64,000 nt of DNA from Alloascoidea hylecoeti (taxonomy: Eukaryota): contig BCKZ01000002.1 of the NCBI GenBank assembly GCA_001600815.1, positions 1,682,294 through 1,746,293 on the forward strand, given 5' to 3'. Within the stretch, counting starts at the first letter, position 1. Every line of letters begins with the position of its first letter. Under the pieces are notes generated by a model. It saw nothing but the letters and a program-made list of their open reading frames with translations, was not told the DNA's origin and made no database searches. Positions 4,084 through 61,670 of this stretch are shown here, one piece after another. Made by a program: the position numbers and the translations under genes.

Positions 4084-4555
4084 ATGATGAGCCTCAGTTC
4101 CTTATGTTTTGGTAGTGTAGTAAGTTCCGGGAAAGAAGTTCTACATACTGTATCATTCTTTAACTAATATATGGGTGAATAGACTTGCTTGATCGGTGTT
4201 TCTAACAGGTTTGAGTGAGATATAAGCCTAGAGTGTCTAATTTTAGAGGCCAATTGCTTAATCCTGTTACCTATTATCAAAAATCAATCATTAAAGTGTC
4301 GTTAAGACCCTCATAAAGTCTTGTTTGACTTGGGTATTATTATGATTACCTTCACAAATCAGCACCACTCTAGTATAAATTTAGAGCATGGAAGAAATTT
4401 TATTTAAAAGTGAAATAGCAATTATTGTATTCATCTTACTTTAATCTTATAAAAAAGGCATCATTAAAATTCAATGATCGAATCTAATAAAACATTTTTT
4501 ATTACGACTTTCACTATTATGGTCTTCAGTTTTAAGGTTTATAATAGTTTAAAAT

Positions 4556-5030
4556 ATGAACCCCATGAATCAAGGAAGAATTGCAACAATGTTTCCACTC
4601 CTGTTTAAAAGATCATGCTTTTTTCATTGACACGTTTATTTCCCAGATAAGTAAACAAAACAACTAAAGGAGTTACAACTTTTGATGAATCATCTCGAAA
4701 TTTTCAATCACAACCCATTACAAATCATAAACTTTCAATATTCTAAAGTTTCAATAGTCCCCTCTTATCAGAATTGGAAATACATCAAATTTATCAAGTA
4801 TTTCAGATTTAAATTCAAATATTAATCTCTTGTAATTGAAATAGAAGAAATGCAACTACAAATATTGATTCCCATAATTATACACAAATCATAAGTATTA
4901 TGATAATAATAGACATGGCAGGCATACAAAGATAATGTTAGATTCCCAACAATATTGGTATATTTACCACTAAAAAAAAGTTTCGGATATCATTGGTGGT
5001 GCTACTCTTAGAAGACGCGATGTAATAGTA
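4556..5030 (+). pseudogene. Degenerate partial copy of SDC1/Dpy-30 (left outer arm of palindrome 1)
   Basis: 4928-5015 aaagataatgttagattcccaacaatattgg...tttcggatatcattggtggtgctactcttagaaga aligns to SDC1 52481-52570 aaagataatgttaaatttccaacaaaattacc...cttcggatttaattggtggtgctaatgttagaaga (DNVRFPT..SDIIGGATLRR vs DNVKFPT..SDLIGGANVRR). It carries frameshifts and stops. Confidence 0.8.
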
Positions 5031-5372
5031 GAAAAAGTCATTAATGAACCATTGTTCTTGGCTTTTTTAAGGNTTTGNTACATCTAATTCTCGCCGTTAA
5101 TCCGTTTAAAGTATTGATGGTTTTGAATGCAAACATACGAGGCTATTACAAGTACACATACTCTATGAATATCATATTATTATTATTATGTTAATATTTT
5201 ATTAAATTGTTATACGTGTATAAAATCATATTAATTTACTATGTTAGACTTTTATAATACTTTGCTTTTCTTGTTGTAGTCCAAATACCCCTTATTATCA
5301 TGATACCAGATACTTTTGATTACTTTGAAATTGATTCCAAAATAGATTCCAATAACAAACTCATTTGTAAAA

Positions 5373-6296
5373 TCATTGAAAACACAGATTCTTATGTGAG
5401 GTTAATTTATTAGAGGAATCAAACCTTTTGTTACAATTATGACACCAATAGTTCAATTCTCCATTATGAATGCGTTTAAAATGATTATCCAAGGCTGCTG
5501 TTCCTTTGAATGCTTTGGGACAGTTTTTGCAAAGGTATTTCCCTTCTACTGTAATTGCAGCGTAATTTACGTCTGCTCTCTTTGAGTGCAACTCGACTGG
5601 AGCAATTTTCTTATGATTAAGCTTATGGTTATGATTCTGATTCTGATTCTGATTATGATTCTGATTCTGATTATGATTATGATTATGATTCTGATTCTGA
5701 TTCTGATTCTGATTCTGATTCTGATTCTGATTCTGATTCTGATTCTGATTCTGATCCTGATTCTGATCCTGATTCTGATTCTGACTGATTAAAAGACTAC
5801 CATCATCATAACTGTAATCAAATTGTATTAAAAATTCGTTTAAATCTGGCTTAAAACTGTTAAATTTAACTCGAGGAACTTCATACTGATTATTATTATG
5901 AATCTGATTATCATCATCATTATAATTAGTTAGCAAGTGTAGATCATTTGGGATTAACTGGTCCTGAAATATTTCTTCATCATTAATATTATGATTATAA
6001 TTTGATAAATATTCATTTGGATTAAATTGAAGCAAAAGATCTTCAGAATAAATATCATTATTAATATGATTTGAATTATCATTTATTAATGTATCTAATT
6101 CACGTTCAGGAACTGTAGGTGGTAAATTTCCCCAATTTTCATCAGTAGTTGTTTCCGATGCTGGTTGTGCTGGGACGTCACATATATTATACTCAGGGTT
6201 AAGAGACTCATACTTCAGTGAGAATACCTGCTCTTTGAATTCATGAAGCATATCTTCATTATTAGAAACTAGTAACAACCCGTTTGAAGAATTCAT
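5373..6296 (-). CDS. 307-aa zinc-finger protein: acidic N-terminus, QN/HN repeat, C2H2 + C2HC fingers; copy A
   Basis: YLCKNCPKAFKGTAALDNHFKRIH and YWCHNCNKRFDSSNKLTSHKNLC; ATG in AAAA context; translation identical to 7357-8280. Confidence 0.88.
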   Translation of the reverse strand: MNSSNGLLLVSNNEDMLHEFKEQVFSLKYESLNPEYNICDVPAQPASETTTDENWGNLPPTVPERELDTLINDNSNHINNDIYSEDLLLQFNPNEYLSNYNHNINDEEIFQDQLIPNDLHLLTNYNDDDNQIHNNNQYEVPRVKFNSFKPDLNEFLIQFDYSYDDGSLLISQNQNQDQNQDQNQNQNQNQNQNQNQNQNQNQNHNHNHNQNQNHNQNQNQNHNHKLNHKKIAPVELHSKRADVNYAAITVEGKYLCKNCPKAFKGTAALDNHFKRIHNGELNYWCHNCNKRFDSSNKLTSHKNLCFQ

Positions 6297-7356
6297 TTTT
6301 ATAAGTTATGTAGTATGTGATAACCAAATTATAAAGAAATGATTATGGTGGATTGTAAAAAAAAGAGAAAAAAGTAAGAGTGTGTTAAAATAGTTGTTAA
6401 GTGAAAAAATACTCAACTTTCCTTATTCTTTCCATTTTATTCCAATGAAGAGGACTGTAGTGTTTCTTTTCGGTATCATGCAAGTATTCGATCTTTGAAA
6501 AGGATCAAGGTTTAAGCATGTTACAAATCTAGTAATAACAATCCCCCACATAGTCATAGCCTCCGTTTATAGCATATCAGAAAGAAAAAATGATTTTTTA
6601 TTGTTATGAAATTCTCTAAAGATATTAATATATTAGACATTGGAACTGTTAAAATTGTATAAAATTGTAATAGTGGATGTTCTTAGAATGATCTTTACAT
6701 TCAATATATTATAAGATATATAGATAGATTATAGGATACTAACCACTTTACACGGTGAATGTTCGGTCACTTCAGGGTCTGGATGGAAAAGTAAATAATA
6801 GACTAAAACCCTACTAAGTCTTGGAAGTAAGTATAAGGAAGCCTTGTGTGTAATTCTTATGGTATGGGTTGCAATTTGGACAGGTGGCTTTACTTCACCG
6901 TGTAAAGTGGTTAGTATCCTATAATCTATCTATATATCTTATAATATATTGAATGTAAAGATCATTCTAAGAACATCCACTATTACAATTTTATACAATT
7001 TTAACAGTTCCAATGTCTAATATATTAATATCTTTAGAGAATTTCATAACAATAAAAAATCATTTTTTCTTTCTGATATGCTATAAACGGAGGCTATGAC
7101 TATGTGGGGGATTGTTATTACTAGATTTGTAACATGCTTAAACCTTGATCCTTTTCAAAGATCGAATACTTGCATGATACCGAAAAGAAACACTACAGTC
7201 CTCTTCATTGGAATAAAATGGAAAGAATAAGGAAAGTTGAGTATTTTTTCACTTAACAACTATTTTAACACACTCTTACTTTTTTCTCTTTTTTTTACAA
7301 TCCACCATAATCATTTCTTTATAATTTGGTTATCACATACTACATAACTTATAAAA

Positions 7357-8280
7357 ATGAATTCTTCAAACGGGTTGTTACTAGTTTCTAATAATGAAGA
7401 TATGCTTCATGAATTCAAAGAGCAGGTATTCTCACTGAAGTATGAGTCTCTTAACCCTGAGTATAATATATGTGACGTCCCAGCACAACCAGCATCGGAA
7501 ACAACTACTGATGAAAATTGGGGAAATTTACCACCTACAGTTCCTGAACGTGAATTAGATACATTAATAAATGATAATTCAAATCATATTAATAATGATA
7601 TTTATTCTGAAGATCTTTTGCTTCAATTTAATCCAAATGAATATTTATCAAATTATAATCATAATATTAATGATGAAGAAATATTTCAGGACCAGTTAAT
7701 CCCAAATGATCTACACTTGCTAACTAATTATAATGATGATGATAATCAGATTCATAATAATAATCAGTATGAAGTTCCTCGAGTTAAATTTAACAGTTTT
7801 AAGCCAGATTTAAACGAATTTTTAATACAATTTGATTACAGTTATGATGATGGTAGTCTTTTAATCAGTCAGAATCAGAATCAGGATCAGAATCAGGATC
7901 AGAATCAGAATCAGAATCAGAATCAGAATCAGAATCAGAATCAGAATCAGAATCAGAATCAGAATCATAATCATAATCATAATCAGAATCAGAATCATAA
8001 TCAGAATCAGAATCAGAATCATAACCATAAGCTTAATCATAAGAAAATTGCTCCAGTCGAGTTGCACTCAAAGAGAGCAGACGTAAATTACGCTGCAATT
8101 ACAGTAGAAGGGAAATACCTTTGCAAAAACTGTCCCAAAGCATTCAAAGGAACAGCAGCCTTGGATAATCATTTTAAACGCATTCATAATGGAGAATTGA
8201 ACTATTGGTGTCATAATTGTAACAAAAGGTTTGATTCCTCTAATAAATTAACCTCACATAAGAATCTGTGTTTTCAATGA
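7357..8280 (+). CDS. 307-aa zinc-finger protein, copy B (head-to-head with copy A)
   Basis: Identical translation to 5373-6296; lies in the right palindrome arm. Confidence 0.88.
   Translation: MNSSNGLLLVSNNEDMLHEFKEQVFSLKYESLNPEYNICDVPAQPASETTTDENWGNLPPTVPERELDTLINDNSNHINNDIYSEDLLLQFNPNEYLSNYNHNINDEEIFQDQLIPNDLHLLTNYNDDDNQIHNNNQYEVPRVKFNSFKPDLNEFLIQFDYSYDDGSLLISQNQNQDQNQDQNQNQNQNQNQNQNQNQNQNQNHNHNHNQNQNHNQNQNQNHNHKLNHKKIAPVELHSKRADVNYAAITVEGKYLCKNCPKAFKGTAALDNHFKRIHNGELNYWCHNCNKRFDSSNKLTSHKNLCFQ
7870..8028 (+). repeat. (CAGAAT)n/(CATAAT)n coding hexamer microsatellite giving poly-QN/HN; mirror copy at about 5625-5783
   Basis: Directly visible tandem array with the same interruptions in both arms. 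Confidence 0.95.
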
Positions 8281-8622
8281 TTTTACAAATGAGTTTGTTA
8301 TTGGAATCTATTTTGGAATCAATTTCAAAGTAATCAAAAGTATCTGGTATCATGATAATAAGGGGTATTTGGACTACAACAAGAAAAGCAAAGTATTATA
8401 AAAGTCTAACATAGTAAATTAATATGATTTTATACACGTATAACAATTTAATAAAATATTAACATAATAATAATAATATGATATTCATAGAGTATGTGTA
8501 CTTGTAATAGCCTCGTATGTTTGCATTCAAAACCATCAATACTTTAAACGGATTAACGGCGAGAATTAGATGTANCAAANCCTTAAAAAAGCCAAGAACA
8601 ATGGTTCATTAATGACTTTTTC

Positions 8623-9143
8623 TACTATTACATCGCGTCTTCTAAGAGTAGCACCACCAATGATATCCGAAACTTTTTTTTAGTGGTAAATATACCAATA
8701 TTTTTGGGAATCTAACATTATCTTTTTCATGGGCTAGTATGATTATTATGATTATTATGATGATTTGGTGTACAATTATGGAAATTTATATTTGAGGTTG
8801 AATTTTTTGTATTTGAAATAGAAGAGTTATTTGAAGTTGGATTTGAATTGAAATTAGATTTAAATATGATACATTTGATAGCTTCGATATATTTTTCCAT
8901 GATGATATTTGATTTGATGAAAGTATTGAAACTTTATAATATAAAATAGGTTGTTTTAATTGTAAATTTGGATTTGAATCATCAGGAGTTGTACCCCCTT
9001 TTATTGTTTTGTGTATATTTGGTATTAAATAATCATTCGACTGTGCAATAAACTTGTAAATGAATTCTGTCATATGTATTCATCAGAATTGGAATTGTTG
9101 GTGAAGTTCCTTTTTGATTCCCTTCTCGATTCTTGTGATTCAT
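8623..9143 (-). pseudogene. Degenerate partial copy of SDC1/Dpy-30 (right outer arm of palindrome 1)
   Basis: ORF 8786-9073 NLQLKQPILYYKVSILSSNQISSWKNISKLSNVSYLN matches SDC1 exon 2 NLQSQQPILYSQVSIPSSNQIASVKNTSIFSNVSNLN; frameshifted on both sides. Confidence 0.85.
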
Positions 9144-9486
9144 ATTTTAAACGATTAAATGATATCGAGAGGAATAATCAAGAAAACACATAATTATAAG
9201 TAGCTTACTAATTACCACTACAATAAATAATACAAAAACCAAGGTTATAATAAATATCTAATTCCCCTATATAATTTAATTGTTCTGTTACAGCTAATGT
9301 GTTTTACAGTATCAACTTATATACTCTAGTTATTAAAGATAAAGCATGTTCCAAACCTTTAACATATTCTCATAATGTAAAAATAAAACCAACCATAAAA
9401 CCAACCATAAAACCATAAAACCATAAAACCATAAATTCATAAATCTGTGAGTGAGATTAAAACATAATAGATATAAAATCTATAGC

Positions 9487-10452
9487 TTACAGTTGTATCA
9501 CACCACTAGCATAACTAACACTATTATCCCAAATGTTTTTAGCTTTGCTTGATTGTGCATAACCCAACCATTCAATATTCCCTTTCTTATCAGGAATAAT
9601 ACCTTCATTTTTCATAGTTTCAAATAGTGCAAGGAGAATTGATAATGGTTTCCGACCACAAATTGTAACATCTGTATCATCAACATAATCATTGAATTTA
9701 TCAAATGAACCAGTAGATAAGATATCCATTGCTTTTTTATCCATATATTCAATTGATTTGTATATTGGGATATCAATCTTGCTATTTTTACCTAATGTAG
9801 ATACACTACTAACGCTCTTGTCTTTTGTATAATTGGTATAATTGAAATTACCACCCCAATGAATGAAATCAGTAGATATAACAAAGGCAGTAGTTGGATC
9901 TTTAACATAAGGAGCCAATAATGAAGCTAATTTACGTTCATAAGAATGTGAAGTATGACCTACCATAATAGGAACAATTTTCGGGAAGTCCGCAACTTGA
10001 GATTCATCATTTCCAGATGATTTTAAATGATTTTCAAAAGCTTTGTATAAAAAAGGTAAATGCATTTCGAAACTATGTTCGTCTTCTTCAACACCAAGTG
10101 ACATTTTTTTTATACCTTTCTCTTCTAATTCATTAACAAGATCGGTATCAACCTGTAATTGGCCAAAGGGTGTATCATACGCAGAAACACCACTTATCAA
10201 AGATCCGCGAAAGTAAACATGATGTGATGGACCTAACATTATTATTCTTTTAACATTTTCCGGATCCCAAGTAGTATATGTTTGTGCTAACACTTGTCCA
10301 CAAAACCGGTACCCAGCATGTGGGCCGATAAGGATTCTTGTTCCTGGCAACGGAGTACACGCTTTTGAGAAATAGGAGTCGATCTGAGTTTTGAGGAGTA
10401 TAGGATTATCGGAATACCACGATCCGGCATGAGTTGCAGCACGAAGTACCAT
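9487..10452 (-). CDS. MHO1: MEMO1 family protein
   Basis: RAATHAGSWY, PHAGY, LGPSHH, EHSFEMHLP, STDFIHWG, TICGRKP and SVSYAS motifs. Confidence 0.95.
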   Translation of the reverse strand: MVLRAATHAGSWYSDNPILLKTQIDSYFSKACTPLPGTRILIGPHAGYRFCGQVLAQTYTTWDPENVKRIIMLGPSHHVYFRGSLISGVSAYDTPFGQLQVDTDLVNELEEKGIKKMSLGVEEDEHSFEMHLPFLYKAFENHLKSSGNDESQVADFPKIVPIMVGHTSHSYERKLASLLAPYVKDPTTAFVISTDFIHWGGNFNYTNYTKDKSVSSVSTLGKNSKIDIPIYKSIEYMDKKAMDILSTGSFDKFNDYVDDTDVTICGRKPLSILLALFETMKNEGIIPDKKGNIEWLGYAQSSKAKNIWDNSVSYASGVIQL

Positions 10453-10659
10453 TTTGATGTTGTTATCTTTAAATATCTAAAATATTTAAAATATGAATAA
10501 TGATGGATCTAAATATGTGGTTAAATATGGTTCTTCAAAAGTGCGATCATGTGATCGTGAATCATAATTAAAATTAAATTATATACATTTATGTACAATG
10601 CGTAAAACTTATAAGTAAACATTTAAGAACGTATTCTCATTAGTAATTGTTTATTTATA

Positions 10660-43141: not shown

Positions 43142-44905
43142 TCAAAGTAACCTCATTTCAAACGGCGAATTGCTTAAATTTTGGGTATCTGAATGTAAAA
43201 AAGATTTTAGATTCCTTAAATATTTTGTAGATTTTGTCTTGACTGGAATTTTAGGTGGTATTTCGGTTTCTTCGTACCCGCCTTTATGCATATGATCAAC
43301 AAGATGATAGAAATATCTATTTGTAACACATCTGACATTGAATTCATCATCTAGATACCAACTATCAATTTCTTTATCATCTGATGTTGGGATTGGTGCA
43401 TTATGACATTGAATGGTTTCATTTTGTAAATCAATTAAAATGTTAAATGAAAACTTTGAAACATAGTATTCATAAACAGCCATAATAAACCTTCCATTGT
43501 GTAATTCAGATACTTTGCACATTTTACACTCAACATTAGGTATTCCATAATCTGAGAACTTAACGAGTTGTATCCAGCTATTATTACCTTGAAAATGGGG
43601 CTTAAAGTTTTTTTGATTATCAACTTTGTAANTTAAATATTTGGATTTTATAGATGGGAAACGGGACACTATATCCACAATATTTTGGATCCATATTCCA
43701 TTAACAGCAAATAGAAAGATATGTGATTCATTAACAGCGATTTCAGCACCATTATATTCACAATCAGAGGATGTTAAAATTGGTTGCAATTTTAGAGATC
43801 CTAATTTAGTTCCATCAGATTTATTCAATACAACAAGTTGTATGTTATACGATATAAAAATAAAGCTATTATTGATTGCAGCAGAAATTTTAGTTTTCTT
43901 TCGTACTTGATCGAATTCCCAGCTCCATTTAGATTTGAAAAATTTATCAAATTTATAACAAGTTAGGCAAATATTTGAAATTACATAACAATAAGCTTCA
44001 TCAATTATAACTGGGAATCTGAATTTCAAATACCTTTCTCGCTGAAACCCATAATATTGATAGTACATGCGTGTAATGTCTGCATAAGCCATATTTTGTG
44101 CTTCCCTAGTTTGTATCTTTGTTGCACCTTTAACATTAAACTTCTTCCAGATCCTACGAACAGCGTAACTAATAGACCAAAGATCATCATATTCATAATA
44201 AGAACCAACGTGTATTCTGACCTTGCCATCTGAAAAATGTTTAAAAGATTCTCTATTCAATGCCAATACTATCTCATTTCTCAATGGATTTTCTATACCT
44301 AATGTTGATTGATCTAATATATAATAATTAAGAAAATAATGACATTGAGTATAATCCAAATTTTCTTCATCATAGACACTTCTGTGTAGAGTTATAAAAG
44401 ATTTAGGTTTGAAATTAAAAATTAAAGAAAACTTTGAACTCAAAGAAAAACAAGAATTTGGAATTTTGAATTGTTTCCTATTTGTATCCTTATTATAAAT
44501 CAATTCTGGTTCATTAACTATATTAGAATCAATGACGGGATTAATTGAAAATGTGAAAGAACCCTTAATCAATTTTCGTTCAATGATTCTTGCAACTTGG
44601 ACCTTATCTTGATAATATTTTAAGCTATCCGAATGATCAATTGAAGATTGCCCAAAAGGATAGGAAGCTGAGTCAAAAGATGAGTTAAATGTTAAATAGA
44701 GAGTTTTACAAGTCCTTGATAATATTGAATATTGGTGAAGTTCATAATTACGACCATAAACACAACCATTAATACCAACGATTATTAGTAAAATTTCAAG
44801 TGGGAGTGATGTTAAAGATTTCCCTTCTATGATACATGGTAATTCAGTTTGAAGACTACTACCGAAGTTGCTAGAGTTTTCATTACTATTATCAATATTT
44901 GACAT
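43142..44905 (-). CDS. Lineage-specific F-box protein
   Basis: SLTSLPLEILLIIV...LSRTCKTLY is F-box-like near the N-terminus. First ATG at 44905; one N at 43632. Confidence 0.7.
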   Translation of the reverse strand: MSNIDNSNENSSNFGSSLQTELPCIIEGKSLTSLPLEILLIIVGINGCVYGRNYELHQYSILSRTCKTLYLTFNSSFDSASYPFGQSSIDHSDSLKYYQDKVQVARIIERKLIKGSFTFSINPVIDSNIVNEPELIYNKDTNRKQFKIPNSCFSLSSKFSLIFNFKPKSFITLHRSVYDEENLDYTQCHYFLNYYILDQSTLGIENPLRNEIVLALNRESFKHFSDGKVRIHVGSYYEYDDLWSISYAVRRIWKKFNVKGATKIQTREAQNMAYADITRMYYQYYGFQRERYLKFRFPVIIDEAYCYVISNICLTCYKFDKFFKSKWSWEFDQVRKKTKISAAINNSFIFISYNIQLVVLNKSDGTKLGSLKLQPILTSSDCEYNGAEIAVNESHIFLFAVNGIWIQNIVDIVSRFPSIKSKYLXYKVDNQKNFKPHFQGNNSWIQLVKFSDYGIPNVECKMCKVSELHNGRFIMAVYEYYVSKFSFNILIDLQNETIQCHNAPIPTSDDKEIDSWYLDDEFNVRCVTNRYFYHLVDHMHKGGYEETEIPPKIPVKTKSTKYLRNLKSFLHSDTQNLSNSPFEMRLL

Positions 44906-46112
44906 TTTGGATGGCAATTGATATCTGGATTAGTTATAGTCAAAAAACAAAATATTGAATAAGGTCACCCCACACCTCATTGCATAATCTGTAATATTCT
45001 TTCAAATAAAACAGCTTCAAATTTAATTGGTTACAACCGGGTCGAGATATTCCTACGCTTTTCTTCGGGCATAACTCCAAAAAAAGTTGCAAGATCAAGA
45101 TCATAACATAACCAGCTACTGATGTTCTTAAAAACATTGCATCAGGTCACATAAATTCTAGTGATTATTATTCTATATGAAACTGCATCTTAAGTTTAGC
45201 ATCTAGTATTGGCGCCCTAAACGCCATAATTACAAAGGGCTGCTACTCTATGAAGCATTTAGTATTATGAACCCCAACCACTATATAGTATAGAGAAACC
45301 TACAAACAACTAGAGCTCTTTATGTTATAAGCATTTTAAAGTTCAAAGGGCCGAGCCCTGACTGTTGTCAAGCATATAATATGAATTCTCCGGATCCTCT
45401 AACATAGCTAACATTCGTTACTGGATAAAACACAAATTCAAAACTTATTAGATTAGTCCAGTTTATCTTTAGATTATTCTATTCTGTTCTTTTGGTTCTT
45501 ACTATTCATAAATGGACTTTTGATCTCTAGCATATTCAATATTCAAAACATTTTCAGAAGAATTAATTATAAAGTTCTCAAGGTGAATCAAAAGAAAAGT
45601 GTAAGTTTAATCTTGACCCAGCCTGTAACTTTCTCATTTGGTGAAACATCATGTAATATTGTTCGAAATTCAAAATTATCTTTTTTTATCAGAAGTATGG
45701 TTATATTAGTAGTAGACTATAGTAGTATTAATATAGTTTTATTTTAGAACTCTTGATACTAGCATTGACGTTATTCGTTTTTTGTTATTACAGCATTTCA
45801 CTCTTAACATAAATATTATTTTAAAGTATTAATCTTTAAGAGTTTAATTCAAAAAAGTAAAATAAGGGTAACTAGAATTCAGCAGGTATAGCTTCATTTT
45901 GACAGACTATTAGAAAACAAAGTTCAAATTGACATCTTTAATAATCTGAAAGGGATTTTCGTTTTCAATCGGTAATATGATCGCGGTGTGTGGGTTTTAT
46001 TATTCAAATGTGCTGTATGAAGGAAAATATGTTGTTCCTGTGTTAATGTGAATTTATAGTCGTCGTGCATAGATAATCTCAGATCAAACCATAATCATCA
46101 TTCTTTTTTTCC

Positions 46113-47605
46113 GATTACAGTTAATTCAGATATCAATTTCCATAATTATGAACTTCACCAATATTCAATATTATCAAGGACTTGTAAAACTCTCTATTTA
46201 ACATTTAACTCATCTTTTGACTCAGCTTCCTATCCTTTTGGGCAATCTTCAATTGATCATTCGGATAGCTTAAAATATTATCAAGATAAGGTCCAAGTTG
46301 CAAGAATCATTGAACGAAAATTGATTAAGGGTTCTTTCACATTTTCAATTAATCCCGTCATTGATTCTAATATAGTTAATGAACCAGAATTGATTTATAA
46401 TAAGGATACAAATAGGAAACAATTCAAAATTCCAAATTCTTGTTTTTCTTTGAGTTCAAAGTTTTCTTTAATTTTTAATTTCAAACCTAAATCTTTTATA
46501 ACTCTACACAGAAGTGTCTATGATGAAGAAAATTTGGATTATACTCAATGTCATTATTTTCTTAATTATTATATATTAGATCAATCAACATTAGGTATAG
46601 AAAATTCGTTGGGAAATGAGATAGTATTGTAATTGAATAGGAATTGGTGTCCTAAACCTTCAGATGGTATGGGAATAAGACACGCTAGAATCTATGATGA
46701 TTATGACGAATATTATGATGAATTGTAGATTAGTGATACTGCTCGTAAGATTTTGAATATGTTTATTGTTGCAATAAGGATCCCAGCCAAAGAAGCACAA
46801 AATATCTTTTATGTAGATCTTACACAGGTTCAATATTCTGGGGTCTCTCTGTTACAACAACTGAAAGTCGTCTTCTTAACAATAACAGATGATTATTGCT
46901 ATTTAATTTCAGATACCTGCATAACTTATTGTTATAGATTTGATAATTCTTGAAGATAAATGGACTTGGAATTTCGATTTTGTTAGATATCAACCAATTT
47001 CTGTTGCAATTAAAACTAACTTTATTTTTATAACATATGATATTCAACTTATTGTATTGAATAAATTTGTTGGAACTAAATTAGGATCTCTAAAATTGCA
47101 ATCAATTTTAACATCCTCTGATTGTGAATATAATGGTGCTGAAATCGCTGTTAATGAATCACATATCTTTCTATTTGCTGTTAATGGAATATGGATCCAA
47201 AATATTGTGGATATAGTGTCCCGTTTCCCATCTATAAAATCCAAATATTTAANTTACAAAGTTGATAATCAAAAAAACTTTAAGCCCCATTTTCAAGGTA
47301 ATAATAGCTGGATACAACTCGTTAAGTTCTCAGATTATGGAATACCTAATGTTGAGTGTAAAATGTGCAAAGTATCTGAATTACACAATGGAAGGTTTAT
47401 TATGGCTGTTTATGAATACTATGTTTCAAAGTTTTCATTTAACATTTTAATTGATTTACAAGATGAAACCATTCATAATGCACCAATCCCAACATCAGAT
47501 GATAGAAAAACTGATAGTTGGTATCTAGATGATGAATTCAATGTCAGATGTGTCACAAATAGATATTTCTATCATCTTGTTGATCATATGCATAAAGGCG
47601 GGTAA
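46113..47605 (+). pseudogene. Inverted pseudogene copy of the 43142-44905 F-box gene
   Basis: 46143-46605 mirrors 44750-44288 and about 47045-47604 mirrors 43840-43275, with a diverged middle. About 160 bp including the ATG and F-box start is deleted; stop at 46630-46632, further stops and a frameshift, truncated 3' end. Confidence 0.92.
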
Positions 47606-51942: not shown

Positions 51943-52814
51943 ATGTCAAGTATTCGTGATTTAATAAACAATCCTGAGGTATTTATTAATAAATTTTCAT
52001 CTTTTTATAGTAGTATATAACTAATTTGCCTTGTTTTGATATTAGGATTCTATTCCAACTAATACTGATATTCATAATGATTCCTCCATTCAAATCTCAA
52101 ATATATCATTACATCCTGAATCACAGGATATAAATGTTCAGTCTAATAATACTATCAATTCGGAACCTCAATCTCAATTACAACCTAATGACTTTCAAAA
52201 TCAAAATATAATAACACCAACACCTGTTACACCTGCTGATGATCTAGGTATAAATTTACAATCACAACAACCTATTTTATATTCTCAAGTTTCAATACCT
52301 TCATCGAATCAGATAGCATCTGTAAAAAACACGTCAATATTCTCAAATGTATCAAACTTAAATTCAAATCCAACTTCAAATCCAACTTCAAATAATTCTT
52401 CAAGAAATTCAACACCAAATATAGAATCCCATAATCATACACCAAATCCTCATCAACATCATAATCATGGTAATCATACAAAAGATAATGTTAAATTTCC
52501 AACAAAATTACCTGATGTCCCACCAAATGAAAAAGCTTCGGATTTAATTGGTGGTGCTAATGTTAGAAGATGGTTAAATGAAAAAGTAACTCCTTCGTTA
52601 TTAGAAGGAATGAGAATGATTGCAAAAGAAAAGTATGTTCATTTATTTATTTATTTATTTATTTAAATCATAAGTATTAACCTTTTGTTTTAGACCTGAC
52701 AAACCTTTAGAAATGCTTGGGAAATTCTTTATGGAAAAAAGTAAACTTCTAGAAAGTGAGAATGAAAATGACATACAAATGAATGAAAATGAAAATGAAG
52801 AGGAAAATAATTAA
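51943..52814 (+). CDS. SDC1: COMPASS subunit Sdc1/Dpy-30, 3 exons (51943-51978, 52046-52632, 52694-52814); not called by the ORF track
   Basis: Spliced frame is open; IGGANVRRWLNEKVTPSLLEGMRMIAKEK|PDKPLEMLGKFFME is the Dpy-30 motif; GTATTT..TAG and GTATGT..TAG introns. Confidence 0.93.
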
Positions 52815-54102
52815 AAATAAAATTATTAGAAAGTAATTTGACTCTGACTCAAATTTAAAATCATAATTTATTAATATAGCATACCTTTACATCTTTCTTA
52901 ATACTGATTCAAATCGATAGCATTCAAATTCAAAATATTTGTAATTGATTGTCATTGTACAGCTAGAGGTATAATAACCATCAATTCCTAATTTAAGATG
53001 TAAATAAAAAAAACTCACTAAATCAATTGTAGGAATTATTAATGATTTTGCTTTGGATTTAACATTTAATTCATTTGTATCAATTTTAAATATCTTGAAT
53101 TTTCATTTTCTGTATAATTTGCATAATTACTGTATTATGACGAAAATATCCCAAGGACTTGAAGGGAAGTAGAATGCTTTATGTAGTTTTCTAAGGACAT
53201 TTATCCCCAGCCTGAATTCGTCATATTGTAGAAACATTTTCGTCGTTTTCGTATGTGTATTTGAAATTTCATAATTACGTCACAATACTCGACATTCACT
53301 GAAGCCAAATAACGAAAACTAGGTCACTCCGTAAACTAAATATGAGTTTCAATGTACCAAAAATACACAAAAGTGATAAAACTGTCTTTCCAATGTGGCA
53401 AATTCAATCTCGTGAAACTGTAATGCTTTAATATAAAAGTTTATGCTTTGAAATTGGTAATATTGTATAAAATTATAGTATTGAATATTATGAGAGTGAA
53501 CTTATGTGTATATTACGATTCATAGTTAAATATAAGATACTACCGTATACGTAATTATAGGTTATCCAAACATTCAAAATGGGAATGACTTAAAGTACAT
53601 AAGTTAGTACTCTCATAAATCTAATTAAAGGCCTCTTACAAAGGTTGTATGTGTGGAAACGTGGGATGGCTCCTTTTTTCTACAATTAGGATCTCCAATC
53701 ACCATATACAATGAATTACGTCCTTCTTTCCAAATTTTAATCCATACCATAAGACTCACAGACCAATAATTCCCTATACTATAAATAGTTTTCGATTCAA
53801 AGGCTTAGTGTTACGGTTGTGGACCATACAATTTTCCAGATTCTGATGATCCCGACCTAACATTCGCCACTATATAAAACACCATCCAGATCCCAAATGC
53901 TATTAGATCACTCCAATATATATTTATGCAATACCATTCTATTCATTTGGTTCTTCTCACTTAGGTAAGACCAATTACCCGACGGAAATATTACATATTC
54001 ATGTATTTACAGAAGGAATCTTAGGTGGTATTTGATATTCGAATGCTGAAGTTTGAAGCCATATATATACGCACAGATCAAATATTTCAATCCACTTAGT
54101 TG

Positions 54103-54210: not shown

Positions 54211-54489
54211 TACATTCACATTAGACACAATATCTACGTACAGAATATGAAGGAAATATTTACAACTTTTCAATTAATATATATATAGAACCATGATCTA
54301 TCATCATTATAGCTTCACCTATCTACAATTTTATATCATATCAATATCAATTTATAAGTGATAATAATAATATTCACAAATGCATATTCATACACTGTGT
54401 GAACTTATTAATCATGATTTGGAGAACAACTACATTTGCAATCGTAATTGTATTTTATTAATTTATTAAATATATATTAATATTGAAAT

Positions 54490-55044
54490 CTAATTATATA
54501 ATTTTAAACCACTCTTGCACGGCTGGTTATTGATACAATCCCGTTTATGTTTCGTTAACATGTGTGATGTCGCATATGTAAAACCACACCGTGAACAACT
54601 GTAAGGTAACAGTCCAAGATGTATACTNTGGAAGTGATTCCGTAATGATTTTTGGCCCTTGAATTGTCTCTCACATCTCTCACAATTAAATTTTTCTTCT
54701 GAAGTAATCAAAAAAGAATTATCTTTTGAAACCGGTTTGGGTCCAACTGGAGCAGTTTCATTATCACTATCAATATGAACTGGGGTCTGACTATTATTAT
54801 CTACATCCTCACTGTTGATATTGTGAATACTGTATGTTTCTTTAACTACAGTTCCTGGATCTTTTGGTTCCTCTAGTTCCTCTGGCTCATCTGTCGTTTC
54901 TGACTCTTCTAGATCGTCTAACTTCTCTGGCTCTTCTGGTGCTGGAAGATCACCTCTATAAGCAGCAAGGAATTCTTCTAAATGCTCTCTAGCGTAAATG
55001 CTTTGTTCGTATGGGAGTCCCCCAAGTGGTCTATTATCATTCAT
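54490..55044 (-). CDS. 184-aa zinc-finger protein (acidic N-terminus, C2H2 + C2HC), copy A
   Basis: FNCERCERQFKGQKSLRNHFxSIH and YSCSRCGFTYATSHMLTKHKRDC. Confidence 0.85.
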   Translation of the reverse strand: MNDNRPLGGLPYEQSIYAREHLEEFLAAYRGDLPAPEEPEKLDDLEESETTDEPEELEEPKDPGTVVKETYSIHNINSEDVDNNSQTPVHIDSDNETAPVGPKPVSKDNSFLITSEEKFNCERCERQFKGQKSLRNHFXSIHLGLLPYSCSRCGFTYATSHMLTKHKRDCINNQPCKSGLKLYN

Positions 55045-55482
55045 TTTATATAGTGTTGGTAATAAAATTAATTATAGTGAGCGATGAGGAAAAGAGAAAA
55101 AGAGCAGATGGCCCTTTAAGTCGGAAAACTTTCATGTCCCTTCCTTATTAGTCTGATGCTGATACTCCAAATTACTTATAACATCACCATTTNGGTAATT
55201 ACAGTGGAAAGAGCTAGTGTTTAATAAAGAAATAAAAACACACAAATATATGCATATGCATGTACACACTTACTAGATGTGGAAACTGCTTTTATTTCTT
55301 TATTAAACACTAGCTCTTTCCACTGTAATTACCNAAATGGTGATGTTATAAGTAATTTGGAGTATCAGCATCAGACTAATAAGGAAGGGACATGAAAGTT
55401 TTCCGACTTAAAGGGCCATCTGCTCTTTTTCTCTTTTCCTCATCGCTCACTATAATTAATTTTATTACCAACACTATATAAA

Positions 55483-56037
55483 ATGAATGATAATAGACCA
55501 CTTGGGGGACTCCCATACGAACAAAGCATTTACGCTAGAGAGCATTTAGAAGAATTCCTTGCTGCTTATAGAGGTGATCTTCCAGCACCAGAAGAGCCAG
55601 AGAAGTTAGACGATCTAGAAGAGTCAGAAACGACAGATGAGCCAGAGGAACTAGAGGAACCAAAAGATCCAGGAACTGTAGTTAAAGAAACATACAGTAT
55701 TCACAATATCAACAGTGAGGATGTAGATAATAATAGTCAGACCCCAGTTCATATTGATAGTGATAATGAAACTGCTCCAGTTGGACCCAAACCGGTTTCA
55801 AAAGATAATTCTTTTTTGATTACTTCAGAAGAAAAATTTAATTGTGAGAGATGTGAGAGACAATTCAAGGGCCAAAAATCATTACGGAATCACTTCCAAA
55901 GTATACATCTTGGACTGTTACCTTACAGTTGTTCACGGTGTGGTTTTACATATGCGACATCACACATGTTAACGAAACATAAACGGGATTGTATCAATAA
56001 CCAGCCGTGCAAGAGTGGTTTAAAATTATATAATTAG
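55483..56037 (+). CDS. 184-aa zinc-finger protein, copy B (head-to-head)
   Basis: Identical to copy A apart from the N-containing codon. Confidence 0.85.
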   Translation: MNDNRPLGGLPYEQSIYAREHLEEFLAAYRGDLPAPEEPEKLDDLEESETTDEPEELEEPKDPGTVVKETYSIHNINSEDVDNNSQTPVHIDSDNETAPVGPKPVSKDNSFLITSEEKFNCERCERQFKGQKSLRNHFQSIHLGLLPYSCSRCGFTYATSHMLTKHKRDCINNQPCKSGLKLYN

Positions 56038-56950
56038 ATTTCAATATTAATATATATTTAATAAATTAATAAAATACAAATACTAACATTTCTTTTATCC
56101 ATTATGCCATTAATTGGCGCTTGTTGGATACAACATCTTCCACCATAAATCTGGAACCCGAAGATTGAAAATGAATCTACAAGTACTAGTGAGGGTACTC
56201 AACCACAATGATCTCCTGCGAAAGAGGAATAATTCATCGCTGATGATGATATTGAAAAACAATTACAAAATTCATAAGTTGCATGCAGTTGTTTAACATG
56301 TAAAAGATTGTGATCATGATATTGATGGAAGTTTTACTCATAAATAACGGGAAATTTTGCTCAAAGAATAATTTCTGAAAGAATATAGACGTGTCAGAAA
56401 ATGGCAGATATTTAATTTGATTTGCTATGCTTAAATAAATCCATTTCTTTGATATGTTACTTAAAATATCTTCCATATTTATACGTTTATTTATGGCTTA
56501 CATAGTACAAGTTGGGAATCTTAAAATTGAAGCAGAAGATATCTAGAAATATTAGAAAAAATTAACATGTTGTAATAAATCATTTAATATATGGCAAATA
56601 ATTGTGCTATACCATTAGCAAGGACTATAATCTCATCCAATTGTTGAAAACGTAGTGTACCGGTACGCGTTGCTTCCTTTTTGCTGATTGAATATAAATG
56701 GTTGTAATTATGCAAAACTAAGATGGTACAACGGTGCTAGCAGCGAAAAAATATTGGCGGAGAAAGAGGGAGTATGGTGGAACAACATATGCTACATCTC
56801 GTCCTTAAAGCCTCTTATCAGATAAATAGATTAAGACAAATAGATAAACTTCCATTTACTAACCTTATCTCACTTTCTCATATTAATCTATCAACTCACA
56901 TATAAACTACACATAAGTAACTTACATTAAAAACTTTTGAGCATTAAAGA

Positions 56951-58981: not shown

Positions 58982-61670
58982 AATGGCAAAGTAGAGAAAA
59001 TGGTGCTTTCATCTAGTCAGTATTAATATATATTATTTTGTACCGTAGATCCTACATACAACAGGATGTTGCATATAGCACCTAATAATTATACGATTTC
59101 TGGGCATTGCCTCAAATCCGGATCCTCGGTCTTAATTATAAACTCCTGATGTTTGTAATTATCATTAAAGAAAATCTTCATATCAATGTATAATATTGGA
59201 TTATGTATGATAAGCTTTAAATTCTTGAATAAGATTTTTTCAGGGGGCTCCTTAAAAGCATACATTGATTTCTTTGGTGTAGTGGTTTTTAACGTTGTCT
59301 GGAGCGATAAGAACCACCAACCCATATTCACTTCATTTTCTATTTTCATTAAAACTTTTCACTAAAACTCTTGTAGTGAATTATCTTTACTGATTTCATT
59401 GATTGGGGCGATAATTTCATGATCAACTATACTAATTATACAAATTATAAGAATGTTAATAGTACTTCTAAACTAGGTAAACATAGCAAAGATCAATATC
59501 CAAACATATAATCAATTGAATATCGAATATCTTCCAAAAACGGGAATGGATATGCTATTTACTGGATCATTTCATAGATTCAAATTCCCCCTTTAATCAG
59601 ATATCATCATTCAAAATACATCAAATTTTCCAAATGTTCCAAATCTAAATTTGAATATTAATTTCTTCTAATGAAATGGAAGAAATTCAACTTCAAATAC
59701 ACATTTACATAATTATTACTATGCATAGTATCTTAATTCTAATAATTTTTATTTGTGTAAAAGCTGAGCGTTCTTCTACAATTTAGCGTATTGATCTCAG
59801 AGTTAACGTCCACCAACTCCATTGAACGATTTTGCCGTTTTATTTCTTAATACTACTTAAGGGGTCTCTTTTTGTTCTGCTTTTAAGTTCACTTATAAAG
59901 CACTCAATTTGCTTACAGTTCAGTATGATCACCTTTTCAAATTCCATTTGATTCAATAAAGCTTACCCACACCTCATTAGAGTAAATTATTTAAGGGTCA
60001 AGTGCCTGGAATGACTTTTATCAAACATATCCTCTTTGTGATAGTCGAATATCTTACCGTTTCCGGCACGACATGGGAACACTTTAATCTATATTTAGTT
60101 AGTATCCATCATCTAGATTCTTCTCAATTACGTAACAGTCGTTATATGTCGATAATGCTCCATATTCACGTTTTGCATAATTCATCTTTTGGGTGGTATG
60201 CTGGTGAATATAATTACACTTTCAGCTGATTGATATCAATTCTATTCAAGATTAAGGGTAAACTTTTACATTTGATTTTGATTTCCTGCCTTTCCTGCTA
60301 CTCAGACCGGATTAAGATATTCTGATAATCCTTAACTTTTTAATAGTTAGATTGGCTACTATTTCTCGAAAGTAGGCCCTTTGGTTCATTACAAATTGAT
60401 TTTGTTAATAGGCGGGAAACTATTTAAAAGAATGTCAATTGGCGTTGAAGAAGATGAATCTTTATAAGTATTTATTGATAATTAATCGTATTTATCAGTT
60501 CAAACCACGGTCTTTACACACCATATACAAGACCTTGAACTTTTCTTAAGATATACTAGATGTTATATTTCTTTTGTTTGGTACTACTTATTTTTTACTT
60601 TCTAAGCCAATAAAATGCAGGTTTTGAAATAAGCTTTTAGTTTCGAATTTTAACCCACCAAAAACATTACCAAATATATATTTAACTTTACACTCAAAAA
60701 GTTTTAAAGTTATAATATAAGCTTATACTTCAAAGATATGTCCGAATTCTGCAAAAGCAAAAAACAAACCAATTCGGTAGATCTTTTCCTCGTCATTATA
60801 CCGAATCACAGAGAATAAGATGATAAAATCCCGTAGATTTTGTTATAGAAACTAAAAAATGAATGAAAAAATTAAAATCATTACTCTCGAATTTTAAAGA
60901 ATTCTTTCCGAATTAGTCTGATGATTTATTACCAGAATAAAATGAATTAGATAAATGAAGAGCTAACGGTGATGTAACCCAAACGGAGTAGTTAAGAAAA
61001 AACAAAGAAATAGAGAATCAAAACATTTAAGCCCAGTAGTTAATGATCTGGTTTAAGTTTTCATTCAAATAATCCTCATTTAAATAATGGTCAATCAAGT
61101 TAGTTCTGCAGAGTAGCTGTTAACTATAGTAAATCCTGGAATGGTATTCCGGGTCACTGCCATTTGATCGTATGAAAAGTACCGGTTATTTTTATCGGGG
61201 TCATAAACGGCTCGTCGTATAATTAGGCATGACCCGACCAAAAATTTTCCCATAGTAAATAAGCGGGCTGCACAAAATGCGTGCACAAAATGGCAAAATG
61301 GTACGGGTCATATTGTCAATCTTATACCGGTACACTTTAAAATAATATAATAATCTATATAACTTCTATAAAGATATAATTTAAAAGAAGAATTAATCTT
61401 TGATTGCTGAAAGCTTATGTTCAATCTAAATTATGATCTTAGAAAATGGCATGCAATTAAAGGATAAAGTATTTTCAGCACACATAGATTCTTACCATAT
61501 ATTTCAATTGTGTGGAACGTTTATGAGTCAAGAAGATCAAATCCTACAGAATAATTAAATAATTAGATTTAAATTTATACCACTCAAATAAATATCTTTA
61601 GTGTATAGTTATTTAATTATACAGAAGCCAATATTTTTACTCATAAGTTCCACCTCAAAGGCTCCCAATT

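Follow-up and report, generated by a model that had tools for sequence, protein, structure and literature searches.

The window, a 64,000-nt stretch of the Alloascoidea hylecoeti contig BCKZ01000002.1, contains a gene-bearing palindrome. Two arms of 1832 nt (4928-6759 and 6894-8725) flank a unique 134-nt spacer (6760-6893). Compared position by position, the arms match at 1829 of 1832 positions (~99.8%), and the match extends from the spacer out to 4928/8725, as a preliminary description of this DNA had stated. The inner identity claimed there is near-identity rather than perfect identity, since three differences are present. The interrupted microsatellite (~160 bp) and the A8 run that it reported within the matching arms lie at 5611-5784 (mirrored at 7869-8042) and 4972-4979, respectively. 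The spacer is not self-complementary, and a decayed palindrome within it was ruled out (score 12 versus 11.9). Its right part is homologous to ~53727-53781, downstream of the SDC1 gene described below.

Each arm carries an open reading frame (ORF) encoding an identical 307-aa putative C2H2 zinc-finger protein, the left copy at 5373-6296 on the minus strand and the right copy at 7357-8280 on the plus strand. The two ORFs are arranged head-to-head, each with 463 nt of upstream arm, so that whole genes with their putative promoters lie within the arms. The predicted protein has an acidic N-terminus, a QN/HN repeat encoded by the microsatellite, which is a hexamer repeat, and two C-terminal C2H2-type zinc fingers. 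The Pfam family zf-C2H2 (PF00096) matches the right copy at 24.0 bits (E 4.8e-5), just below the cut-off of 25.2, while a paralogue elsewhere in the window scores 26.8 bits, above that cut-off. In the Atlas, the look-alikes of the protein (0.96; recognition value low) are C2H2 clusters. Against two paralogues, dN/dS is 0.27 and 0.40 in the C-terminal part and 1.06 in the N-terminal part. A protein search returned four matches, of which the one close match is a paralogue on contig C38 of the same genome. Neither a search of metagenome contigs with the protein nor a junction-pattern search for a related locus returned a locus, in searches from which near-identical records may be excluded. The arms likely hold a pair of identical copies, transcribed divergently, of a gene that is lineage-specific and predicted to be transcription-factor-like. 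The right-hand neighbour is an ordinary MEMO1/MHO1 gene (9487-10452, minus strand; Pfam Memo E 1e-68), whose nearest relatives are ~50% identical, with none above 50% and with budding yeasts as the named matches.

Inverted homology does not stop at the ends of the near-identical arms. Just beyond them, 4542-4927 and 9157-8726 form a gap-rich alignment with identity in 261 of 371 columns (70%). Its local score is 137; 500 shuffles give 26.9 +- 3.4, and 420 real segments of the window have a median score of 25. The score lies far above the shuffle maximum of 42, the kind of control against which the preliminary description had proposed to check the outer similarity. The abrupt drop to diverged, alignable inverted homology for ~400 bp that it reported is thus borne out, and both of its example pairs (4545-4562 with 9137-9155, and 4655-4680 with 8987-9012) align. 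No homology was detected beyond 4542/9157 (local score 24 versus a mean of 23). The outermost part is a 105-nt distal block (left copy 4542-4646, plus strand; right copy 9041-9157, minus strand), which delimits the old duplicated unit on its outer side; its two copies align with a local score of 45, against a shuffle maximum of 30. The block gives only background scores against SDC1 (17 and 19) and is hence absent from that gene. A genome search with the block found only the query itself and also missed the known right copy, so it is no proof of the block's absence elsewhere. With ~30% outer divergence, a common distal block and homology that ends at 4542/9157, the inverted pair is old, as had been proposed.

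Between the distal blocks and the near-identical arms lie relics of a gene for which an intact copy is present in the window. The intact gene (51943-52814, plus strand) is SDC1/Dpy-30-like, SDC1 being the name of the yeast Dpy-30 protein. A three-exon model (51943-51978, 52046-52632, 52694-52814) was inferred from splice signals. The end of exon 2 alone carries the Dpy-30 motif (Pfam 22.3 bits versus a cut-off of 22), and exon 3 alone has no Pfam match. The left relic (4655-5015, plus strand) is 5'-truncated and frameshifted, with a BLAST match of 4659-5015 to 52213-52570 at 68% identity. It is split by the arm edge into an outer part (4655-4927) and a part inside the near-identical arm (4928-5015). 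The right relic (8638-9044, minus strand) was found by BLAST against 52570-52180 (73%, E 3e-69) and by tblastn with SDC1 exon 2; its part at 8726-9044 lies outside the arm. Further members of this SDC1-derived relic family are present at 45629-45704, at 59569-59760 (plus strand; BLAST and tree) and on contig C38. The preliminary description did not recognise the outer arms as an SDC1 pseudogene or as members of a dispersed relic family, nor did it note the closeness of the right copy to the intact gene that is described below. The tail-to-tail pairing of a zinc-finger gene with an SDC1 relic recurs on C38 at 71-77% identity and, judged from this recurrence, is old.

The outer copies have diverged unevenly, since within 4655-4927 the right copy is nearer to the intact gene (207/269, 77%) than to the left copy (184/258, 71%), and site patterns include 36 left-specific versus 18 right-specific sites. 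These patterns may reflect separate origins or later exchanges. In an unrooted quartet tree the left relic groups with the relic at 59.6 kb (support 97.9/99; 10 versus 3 versus 2 sites), which is its sister. A reading of this tree as unrelated origins of the outer copies was dropped, since a root at SDC1 yields the same unrooted tree.

The edge of the near-identical arm lies inside the SDC1 relic. The alignment with SDC1 stays in register across 4928, and both flanks carry the relic on. The boundary is therefore a recombination endpoint rather than a breakpoint. Relative to SDC1, both arms share a 2-nt deletion, at the A8 run, and other relic changes. The three arm differences are 4950/8703 (C versus A) and Ns at the two mirror pairs 5073/8580 and 5078/8575. 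All three sit in the outer 151 of 1832 nt (4928-5078), a clustering with P 0.0006 for three events, or P 0.007 if the two Ns are counted as one event, both calculated post hoc. The clustering argument is weaker for 4950, because an assembler resolves differences most easily close to the end of an arm. The sharp edge in the preliminary description stands as a drop at 4928/8725, although identity rises inward in two steps (70% to 98% to 100%), and from the positions of the differences the segment 4928-5078 is a probable older conversion tract.

The mirror-image Ns are unphased arm differences. The arms are hence unphased in the assembly, and the microsatellite or other sites could hide further differences; the earlier caution that a consensus may inflate the inner identity was right in kind. 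Ns of the C3 palindrome reproduce a merge of both spacer orientations. Heterozygosity as the origin of the Ns was ruled out, as 69 of 73 other stretches of the genome have none.

Contigs from four sequencing runs (at most three samples) were compared over 5790-6930. A 194-nt contig (6730-6923), consisting of the spacer with 30 nt of arm at each end, is present in X1, X2 and X4, the last from a different sample and study. The arm contig ends exactly at 6759 in the same three runs. The spacer contig is thus joined to arm at both ends in three of four runs, and contigs break at both arm ends. Arm to spacer contig depths in three runs are 121.9:53.8, 47:33.8 and 14.2:4.0, depth here not being copy number. 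In X3, one contig runs from arm into spacer, unbroken at 6759, and cover is absent from 6854 onward, a gap that carries no evidential weight. The reference path from 5800 to 6759 is covered without difference in all four runs. The spacer joins and the mirror Ns together indicate that both inverted copies genuinely exist in the genome. Because contigs of the second sample connect the spacer with arm on both sides, a fold-back artefact is unlikely, in agreement with the preliminary description. No arm substitution or indel was seen across samples over 970 nt of arm in the four runs; because contigs drop variants, this lack of cross-strain differences neither supports nor refutes homogenisation. 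With no fixed arm substitution in another sample, concerted evolution between lineages is not seen.

Two further near-perfect inverted repeats are present in the window, giving three within 52 kb. IR3 (43275-47604) pairs an intact 587-aa gene with a pseudogene. It is a patchwork, with ~100% blocks either side of a 65-73% block (~67%) that contains all four stops of the pseudogene. Homology inward of its inner block was rejected on local score (39 versus a shuffle maximum of 43); BLAST gives a weak 56-nt match there. IR2 (54444-56083) is a palindrome with 797-nt arms and a 46-nt spacer, and each arm carries a 184-aa zinc-finger paralogue, the one that exceeds the PF00096 cut-off. Scores just outside IR2 (22) and the C3 palindrome (28) stay within the shuffle range and give no diverged outer homology, so that only two of the four near-perfect kilobase repeats tested have it, one of them weakly. 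The four near-perfect repeats have either 3-4 differences per arm or block-wise identity.

We propose, at a probability of roughly 0.6, that an inverted duplication of old date underlies the palindrome and that gene conversion between its arms now keeps part of it identical. Long ago, a cassette of ~2.2 kb comprising the distal block, a truncated SDC1 copy and the zinc-finger gene with its promoter would have come to lie as two inverted copies around the 134-nt spacer. The homology, its depth and the common outer end are observed; the zinc-finger gene would have been in both copies from the start. One arm would then have served as repair template for the other, giving 1.83 kb at ~99.8%. This identity and the in-register endpoint are likewise observed, and the repair route may have been intrachromatid or sister-chromatid conversion, or fold-back template switching. 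A non-homologous breakpoint would not give an in-register relic on both flanks, which supports conversion. From where the three arm differences lie, we infer that conversion occurred at least twice, an older tract reaching 4928/8725 and a younger one ending at or inside 5079/8574. The inner 1.83 kb was thus probably overwritten repeatedly. The outer 390-430 nt would have escaped conversion and now decays as a pseudogene, with an indel-rich low-complexity stretch just outside the boundary as a likely barrier to heteroduplex extension. The spread of identities among inverted repeats also fits this reading: of 15 rows of inverted matches in 600 kb sampled, 13 lie at 66-93% and two, both from one palindrome, at 99.8-100%, with none between, although rapid loss of young palindromes would leave such a gap too. 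Provided that inner and outer parts were duplicated together, as appears to be the case, the arm identity is far above that predicted from the age of the duplication (99.8% versus 70%). Of the preliminary claim that the inner 1.8 kb is being homogenised, it stands that the arms were made identical recently, with an edge inside homologous sequence on both sides. The copying may be ongoing, or it may have consisted of one or two late events. Continual homogenisation is not proven, as the other samples show no substitutions in their arms and the searches yielded no close relative.

A tentative alternative is one late event: between old inverted SDC1-relic cassettes, the left arm would have been rewritten from the right in one recent fold-back or long template switch, with rejoining in the 70%-identical relic. 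On this view the palindrome is young and unmaintained, and the interior between the cassettes is assumed to have been diverged or unrelated. Segments 6912-7046 and 6830-6921 are collinear with 53413-53780 downstream of SDC1; with its inner end and part of the spacer collinear in this way, the right arm resembles the original and the left arm a copy of it. The outer relic on the right is also closer to SDC1 than to the left relic, which groups with the 59.6-kb relic, although the quartet tree equally fits a root at SDC1, with the right relic branching first, followed by the left and by the daughter copy of the left. Fold-back inverted duplications stabilised by repeats are a known yeast pathway, as described in PMC10622511, whereas heterology above 25% suppressed repeat pairing in the yeast ssDNA assay of PMC10164571. 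The common distal block and outer end instead point to one ancestor of left and right. Single copying further predicts an even spread of differences, as opposed to three of three in the outer 8%, and IR3 requires at least two separate tracts.

An assembly artefact, with one real arm placed twice or a hairpin chimera, and with the identity and sharp edge created by the assembler, is very improbable. The mirror-image Ns do mean that the arms are unphased, the X3 contig passes 6759 without a break, and such repeats are reported to be merged by short-read assemblies (PMC9731477). Against this stand the two-sided spacer contig of three runs, X4 among them being a separate sample, and the reference path free of differences in all four runs. 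The Ns themselves mark copy differences, of which a single-copy arm would show none, and the SDC1 relic continues across both outer junctions. It is similarly hard to credit that the locus is an inverted-repeat centromere of Komagataella type, its arms homogenised for centromere function. The 1.8-kb arms are near the 2.0-2.7 kb given for K. phaffii (PMC5010909), but the core is 134 nt rather than ~1 kb. Each arm also carries an intact ORF whose zinc-finger part has a dN/dS below 1, and three such repeats lie in 52 kb as opposed to one per chromosome, though one of the three could still be a centromere.

The locus probably belongs to a known type, the self-correcting gene palindromes, exemplified by Caenorhabditis gene palindromes and Saccharomyces flip/flop repeats. 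As described by Zhao et al. 2007 (PMC1803023), the Caenorhabditis F44E5.4/F44E5.5 head-to-head palindromes likewise have divergent identical paralogues and a short spacer (126 bp versus 134 here), and their arm identity is ascribed to gene conversion, with the structure decaying in some lineages. Age is judged there from three species and here from diverged outer remnants in the same genome; a further difference is that the boundary at this locus falls within a pseudogene. The flip/flop repeats IRL/IRR of Saccharomyces chromosome XIV, with their Centroid genes, are reported by Salzberg et al. 2022 (PMC9731477) as kilobase budding-yeast repeats that contain entire genes, promoters included, from a lineage-restricted family that evolves rapidly. 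They are homogenised by non-allelic gene conversion and collapsed by short-read assemblies. They are longer, less identical and more distant (4.2 kb, 97.6%, 24 kb apart, versus 1.8 kb, 99.8% and 134 nt here), their gene family is another one, their concerted evolution was demonstrated with long reads, and conserved boundaries are described in place of the decayed outer arms seen here. The S. cerevisiae fold-back inverted duplications of Al-Zain et al. 2023 (PMC10622511) arise in one step as repeat-stabilised, short-spacer palindromes, according to that account mainly in Sae2/Mre11-deficient cells and as gross rearrangements. Such an event would leave diverged outer arms only if an older inverted pair pre-existed.

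Human Y palindromes have far larger arms and lie on a non-recombining sex chromosome. Those such as P6 are described as having >99% arm identity ascribed to conversion of gene-bearing arms, as proposed here, though there conversion has been measured in populations (PMC3723533). The centromeres of Komagataella phaffii, another budding yeast, have ~2-kb virtually identical arms and a unique core, which Coughlan et al. 2016 (PMC5010909) describe as a ~1-kb Cse4-bound core, one per chromosome, in contrast to the locus described here, whose core is 134 nt, whose arms are coding and which is one of three repeats within 52 kb. In the part of the literature covered, we found no report of decayed outer arms on a homogenised yeast palindrome. 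Long, short-spacer inverted repeats are held to be fragile in budding yeast (PMC10164571, PMC7999016), and this palindrome appears long-lived despite that presumed fragility, its edges ~30% apart and its core 99.8% identical. From the diverged edge, age can be estimated within a single genome, and the conversion endpoint mapped inside a pseudogene offers a way to study what brings a conversion tract to a halt. Taken singly, the locus is a neat but expected example of arm-to-arm conversion.

It is doubtful, though conceivable, that numerous kilobase gene palindromes with short spacers are tolerated in this lineage and continually homogenised genome-wide. This would keep identical gene pairs in the manner of the Y chromosome, perhaps through lost or altered hairpin cleavage (Sae2 with Mre11). 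A profile search of the genome for SAE2, run with no positive control, gave no candidate and is only a lead; homologues of Mre11 and MutS were found. If genome-wide maintenance is real, the palindrome would record ~30% divergence worth of stable maintenance, and if the genome's many palindromes behave alike, they would provide a tractable yeast model for palindrome maintenance.

Palindrome 1 is a real feature: a near-perfect inverted repeat in which a left arm (4928-6759, 1832 nt) and a right arm (6894-8725, 1832 nt) flank a 134-nt spacer. Base-by-base comparison of the arms finds 1829 of 1832 positions equal, leaving a difference at 4950/8703 and N at the mirror pairs 5073/8580 and 5078/8575. 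The preliminary description had proposed arms that match out to 4928/8725 and end sharply there, and this is borne out; the microsatellite (5611-5784), the A8 run and both example alignments all match what it reported. Outer homology continues past the arm ends: 4542-4927 and the reverse complement of 8726-9157 agree in 261 of 371 aligned columns (70%), the alignment being broken by many gaps. This diverged outer homology, also claimed earlier, is significant against shuffled controls: its local score is 137, whereas 500 shuffles average 26.9 ± 3.4 and reach at most 42, and 420 real segments of the window have a median of 25.

The diverged outer part is mostly a decayed gene copy, 5'-truncated on the left. 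In BLAST, 4659-5015 (68%) and 8638-9044 (73%) match 52180-52570. This is the second of three predicted exons in an intact gene (51943-52814) with a Dpy-30 motif; the yeast gene of this type is named SDC1. The boundary at 4928/8725 falls within this pseudogene and, in the alignment, both flanks carry the pseudogene on in register across it, so the edge is a recombination endpoint in homologous DNA. This continuity is the main support for the earlier proposal of a homogenisation boundary within older homology. Compared with SDC1, both arms lack 2 nt at the A8 run. A distal block further out, 4542-4646 on the left and 9041-9157 on the right, is common to the two sides (score 45, shuffle maximum 30) and has no detectable match to SDC1 (scores 17 and 19, background level); similarity stops at its outer ends. 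The shared block and common outer stop indicate a single ancestral cassette, with a single outer end, for the left and right copies. The pairing of zinc-finger gene and SDC1 relic recurs on another contig, C38, at 71-77% identity, and is therefore old.

SDC1 relics form a dispersed family, with other copies at 45629-45704, at 59569-59760 and on C38, plus a 35-nt match on contig C4. Over the 4655-4927 region, the right outer copy agrees with SDC1 in 207 of 269 columns and with the left copy in 184 of 258; 36 site patterns are left-specific, 18 right-specific and 24 common to both, giving a relative-rate chi-square of 6.0 (calculated by hand). A tree groups the left copy with the 59.6-kb relic (support 97.9/99; over 148 columns the informative sites split 10, 3 and 2). 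With the root on SDC1, the tree is consistent with that relic having been copied from the left one. The outer copies may also have had separate origins or undergone later exchanges. Collinearity with DNA downstream of SDC1, seen at the inner end of the right arm and in some of the spacer, suggests the right side as the original. Around the 59.6-kb relic, 59380-60460 is a scrambled mosaic of MEMO1 fragments, the relic and a piece matching 53906-54031, and many old fragments are common to the 4.4-10.5 kb and 43-62 kb regions.

Both arms carry the same 307-aa ORF, head-to-head (left copy 5373-6296, minus strand; right copy 7357-8280, plus strand). Its protein has an acidic N-terminus, a QN/HN tract encoded by the microsatellite and, towards the C-terminus, two fingers of C2H2 type, which score 24.0 bits against a Pfam cut-off of 25.2. 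Besides two paralogues on C38, the family has members on contig C37 and in the window's second palindrome. Comparison with both C38 copies yields dN/dS of 0.27 and 0.40 over the C-terminal 80 codons, and with one of them 1.06 over the N-terminal 151 codons; a protein search returned four matches, the sole close one being the C38 copy from the same genome. On these values and matches, the family is small and lineage-specific, its fingers being under some constraint. An element family with ~90-nt terminal inverted repeats (89-97% alike) adjoins the C37 and C38 paralogues (stretches L027, 1921-4189; L028, 9629-9719; L031, 1159-4723), and may have a role in cassette movement. Near the C38 copy, a 305-aa ORF (L028, 5471-6385) resembles a reverse-transcriptase fragment by eye. 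Short decayed palindromes (60-84%) are common near these loci (window 52729-53117; L026, 36-301; L030, 9321-9641; L035, 263-618).

Contigs from four sequencing runs were aligned over 5790-6930: X1 and X2, possibly from the source sample; X4, from another sample and study; and X3, a wood-decay metagenome. In X1, X2 and X4 the arm contig stops at precisely 6759. The spacer, with 30 nt of arm on either side, sits on a contig of its own (194 nt, 6730-6923), as expected for a two-copy arm joined through the spacer. Arm:spacer depths are 121.9:53.8, 47:33.8 and 14.2:4.0, these being contig depths and not copy numbers. In X3 a single contig runs from arm into spacer to 6853, unbroken at 6759, with the second junction unconfirmed in that run. 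Sampled words of 6760-10500 are present at 0.95 in X3 and 0.94 in X4. Nine of the ten Ns in the window sit in the arms of its three inverted repeats, and 69 of 73 other genome stretches (713 kb) have none; the four with Ns are the palindrome on contig C3 (two), a scaffold gap, and a stretch end with a 97% copy beside that gap. The 25-nt spacer of the C3 palindrome is written as a self-reverse-complementary base/N pattern, a merge of two orientations. Together these indicate that the assembly writes N where alternative copies disagree, and the mirror Ns of palindrome 1 are best read as true unphased arm differences, giving an arm identity of ~99.8%; the microsatellite could hide length differences. 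That the palindrome itself is an assembly artefact is very improbable. One X4 contig of 2165 nt shares 30 nt with the arm (5800-5829) and then runs into other sequence, matching a gene on contig C16 in 29 of 30 letters (L039, C16:90372-90401, minus strand). The assembly lacks this junction and X1-X3 are unbroken through 5800; it may be a low-depth chimeric contig or a rearrangement in that sample.

The reading we favour, at a probability of about 0.6, starts from an old inverted duplication of 2.2 kb. Copying from one arm to the other would repeatedly have overwritten its inner 1.83 kb, and the pseudogene part outside would have escaped. The homology, arm identity, endpoint and shared outer end are observed, and to that extent the earlier claim of an old duplication with a homogenised interior stands; that overwriting recurred, and by which repair pathway, we infer. 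The indel-rich outer sequence next to the boundary may have acted as the barrier, and selection for double gene dose may have contributed. All three arm differences lie in the outer 151 nt and none in the inner 1681, a clustering that suggests nested conversion tracts (P = 0.0006 if they are three events and 0.007 if two, both calculated post hoc, with edge sites easier to resolve). One late copying step on an inverted scaffold that was already old, for which fold-back duplication (parts of PMC10622511) provides a basis, is possible though less probable; the 25% heterology limit on repeat pairing (parts of PMC10164571) counts against it. In the third inverted repeat of the window, IR3 (43275-47604), one copy is an intact 587-aa gene and the other a pseudogene; identity is ~100% at 43451-43750 and 44331-44730 and 65-73% in between (about 67% for the block), and all four stops of the pseudogene lie within the diverged block. 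IR3 requires at least two tracts and cannot be the product of a single fold-back. A repeat on contig C3, at 397.8-400.3 kb, is likewise patchy (93%, 88% and 71%). The 587-aa gene has an F-box-like start by eye, no match in a Pfam scan, and a family with 16 genome matches, many with stops. Mre11 and several MutS homologues are found in the genome; a whole-genome SAE2 Pfam profile search, run without a positive control, gave no candidate.

That the lineage maintains short-spacer gene palindromes genome-wide is doubtful. A diverged outer arm was seen in two of four repeats tested, which counts against generality: IR3 has weak outer homology (45, shuffle maximum 34), and none was found at IR2 (54444-56083) or the C3 palindrome. 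IR2, a second zinc-finger palindrome, lies 1.6 kb from intact SDC1; its arms, each with a 184-aa ORF, flank a 46-nt spacer. The near-perfect C3 palindrome (C3:408727-410575; L070/L071) has 912-nt arms, a 238-aa ORF starting identically in each, and a 66% copy ~8 kb upstream. Among 15 inverted matches (at least 80 nt, within 20 kb) in 600 kb, sampled as three hand-chosen 200-kb blocks, one placed to take in a known paralogue, 13 are at 66-93%, two (one palindrome) at 99.8-100%, and none between. This gap fits maintenance followed by escape and also fast loss of young palindromes.

In working and structural features, palindrome 1 resembles Caenorhabditis head-to-head gene palindromes (parts of PMC1803023) and Saccharomyces flip/flop repeats (parts of PMC9731477), and by analogy would belong to this known kind. 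The defining trait of both is that arms cluster by lineage; palindrome 1 shows zero differences over 970 nt of arm in all four runs, and hence no variation by which to compare lineages. A centromere is highly unlikely, as palindrome 1 does not fit those of K. phaffii as described in parts of PMC5010909. A literature search of partial coverage turned up no paper describing a homogenised yeast palindrome with outer arms in decay, and no related locus was found among metagenome contigs searched with the zinc-finger protein or by junction pattern. Host genes are of AT-rich budding-yeast type; the closest relatives of the neighbouring MEMO1 are ~50% identical, and the named matches are budding yeasts. 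The window (C2:1682294-1746293) ends 3.3 kb from the contig end, in an assembly of 24.8 Mb and 136 contigs. The ends of C2 and C38 share a decayed copy of one long orphan ORF (window 61671-64000 and L037 against L028, 3947-5079; 71-80%).
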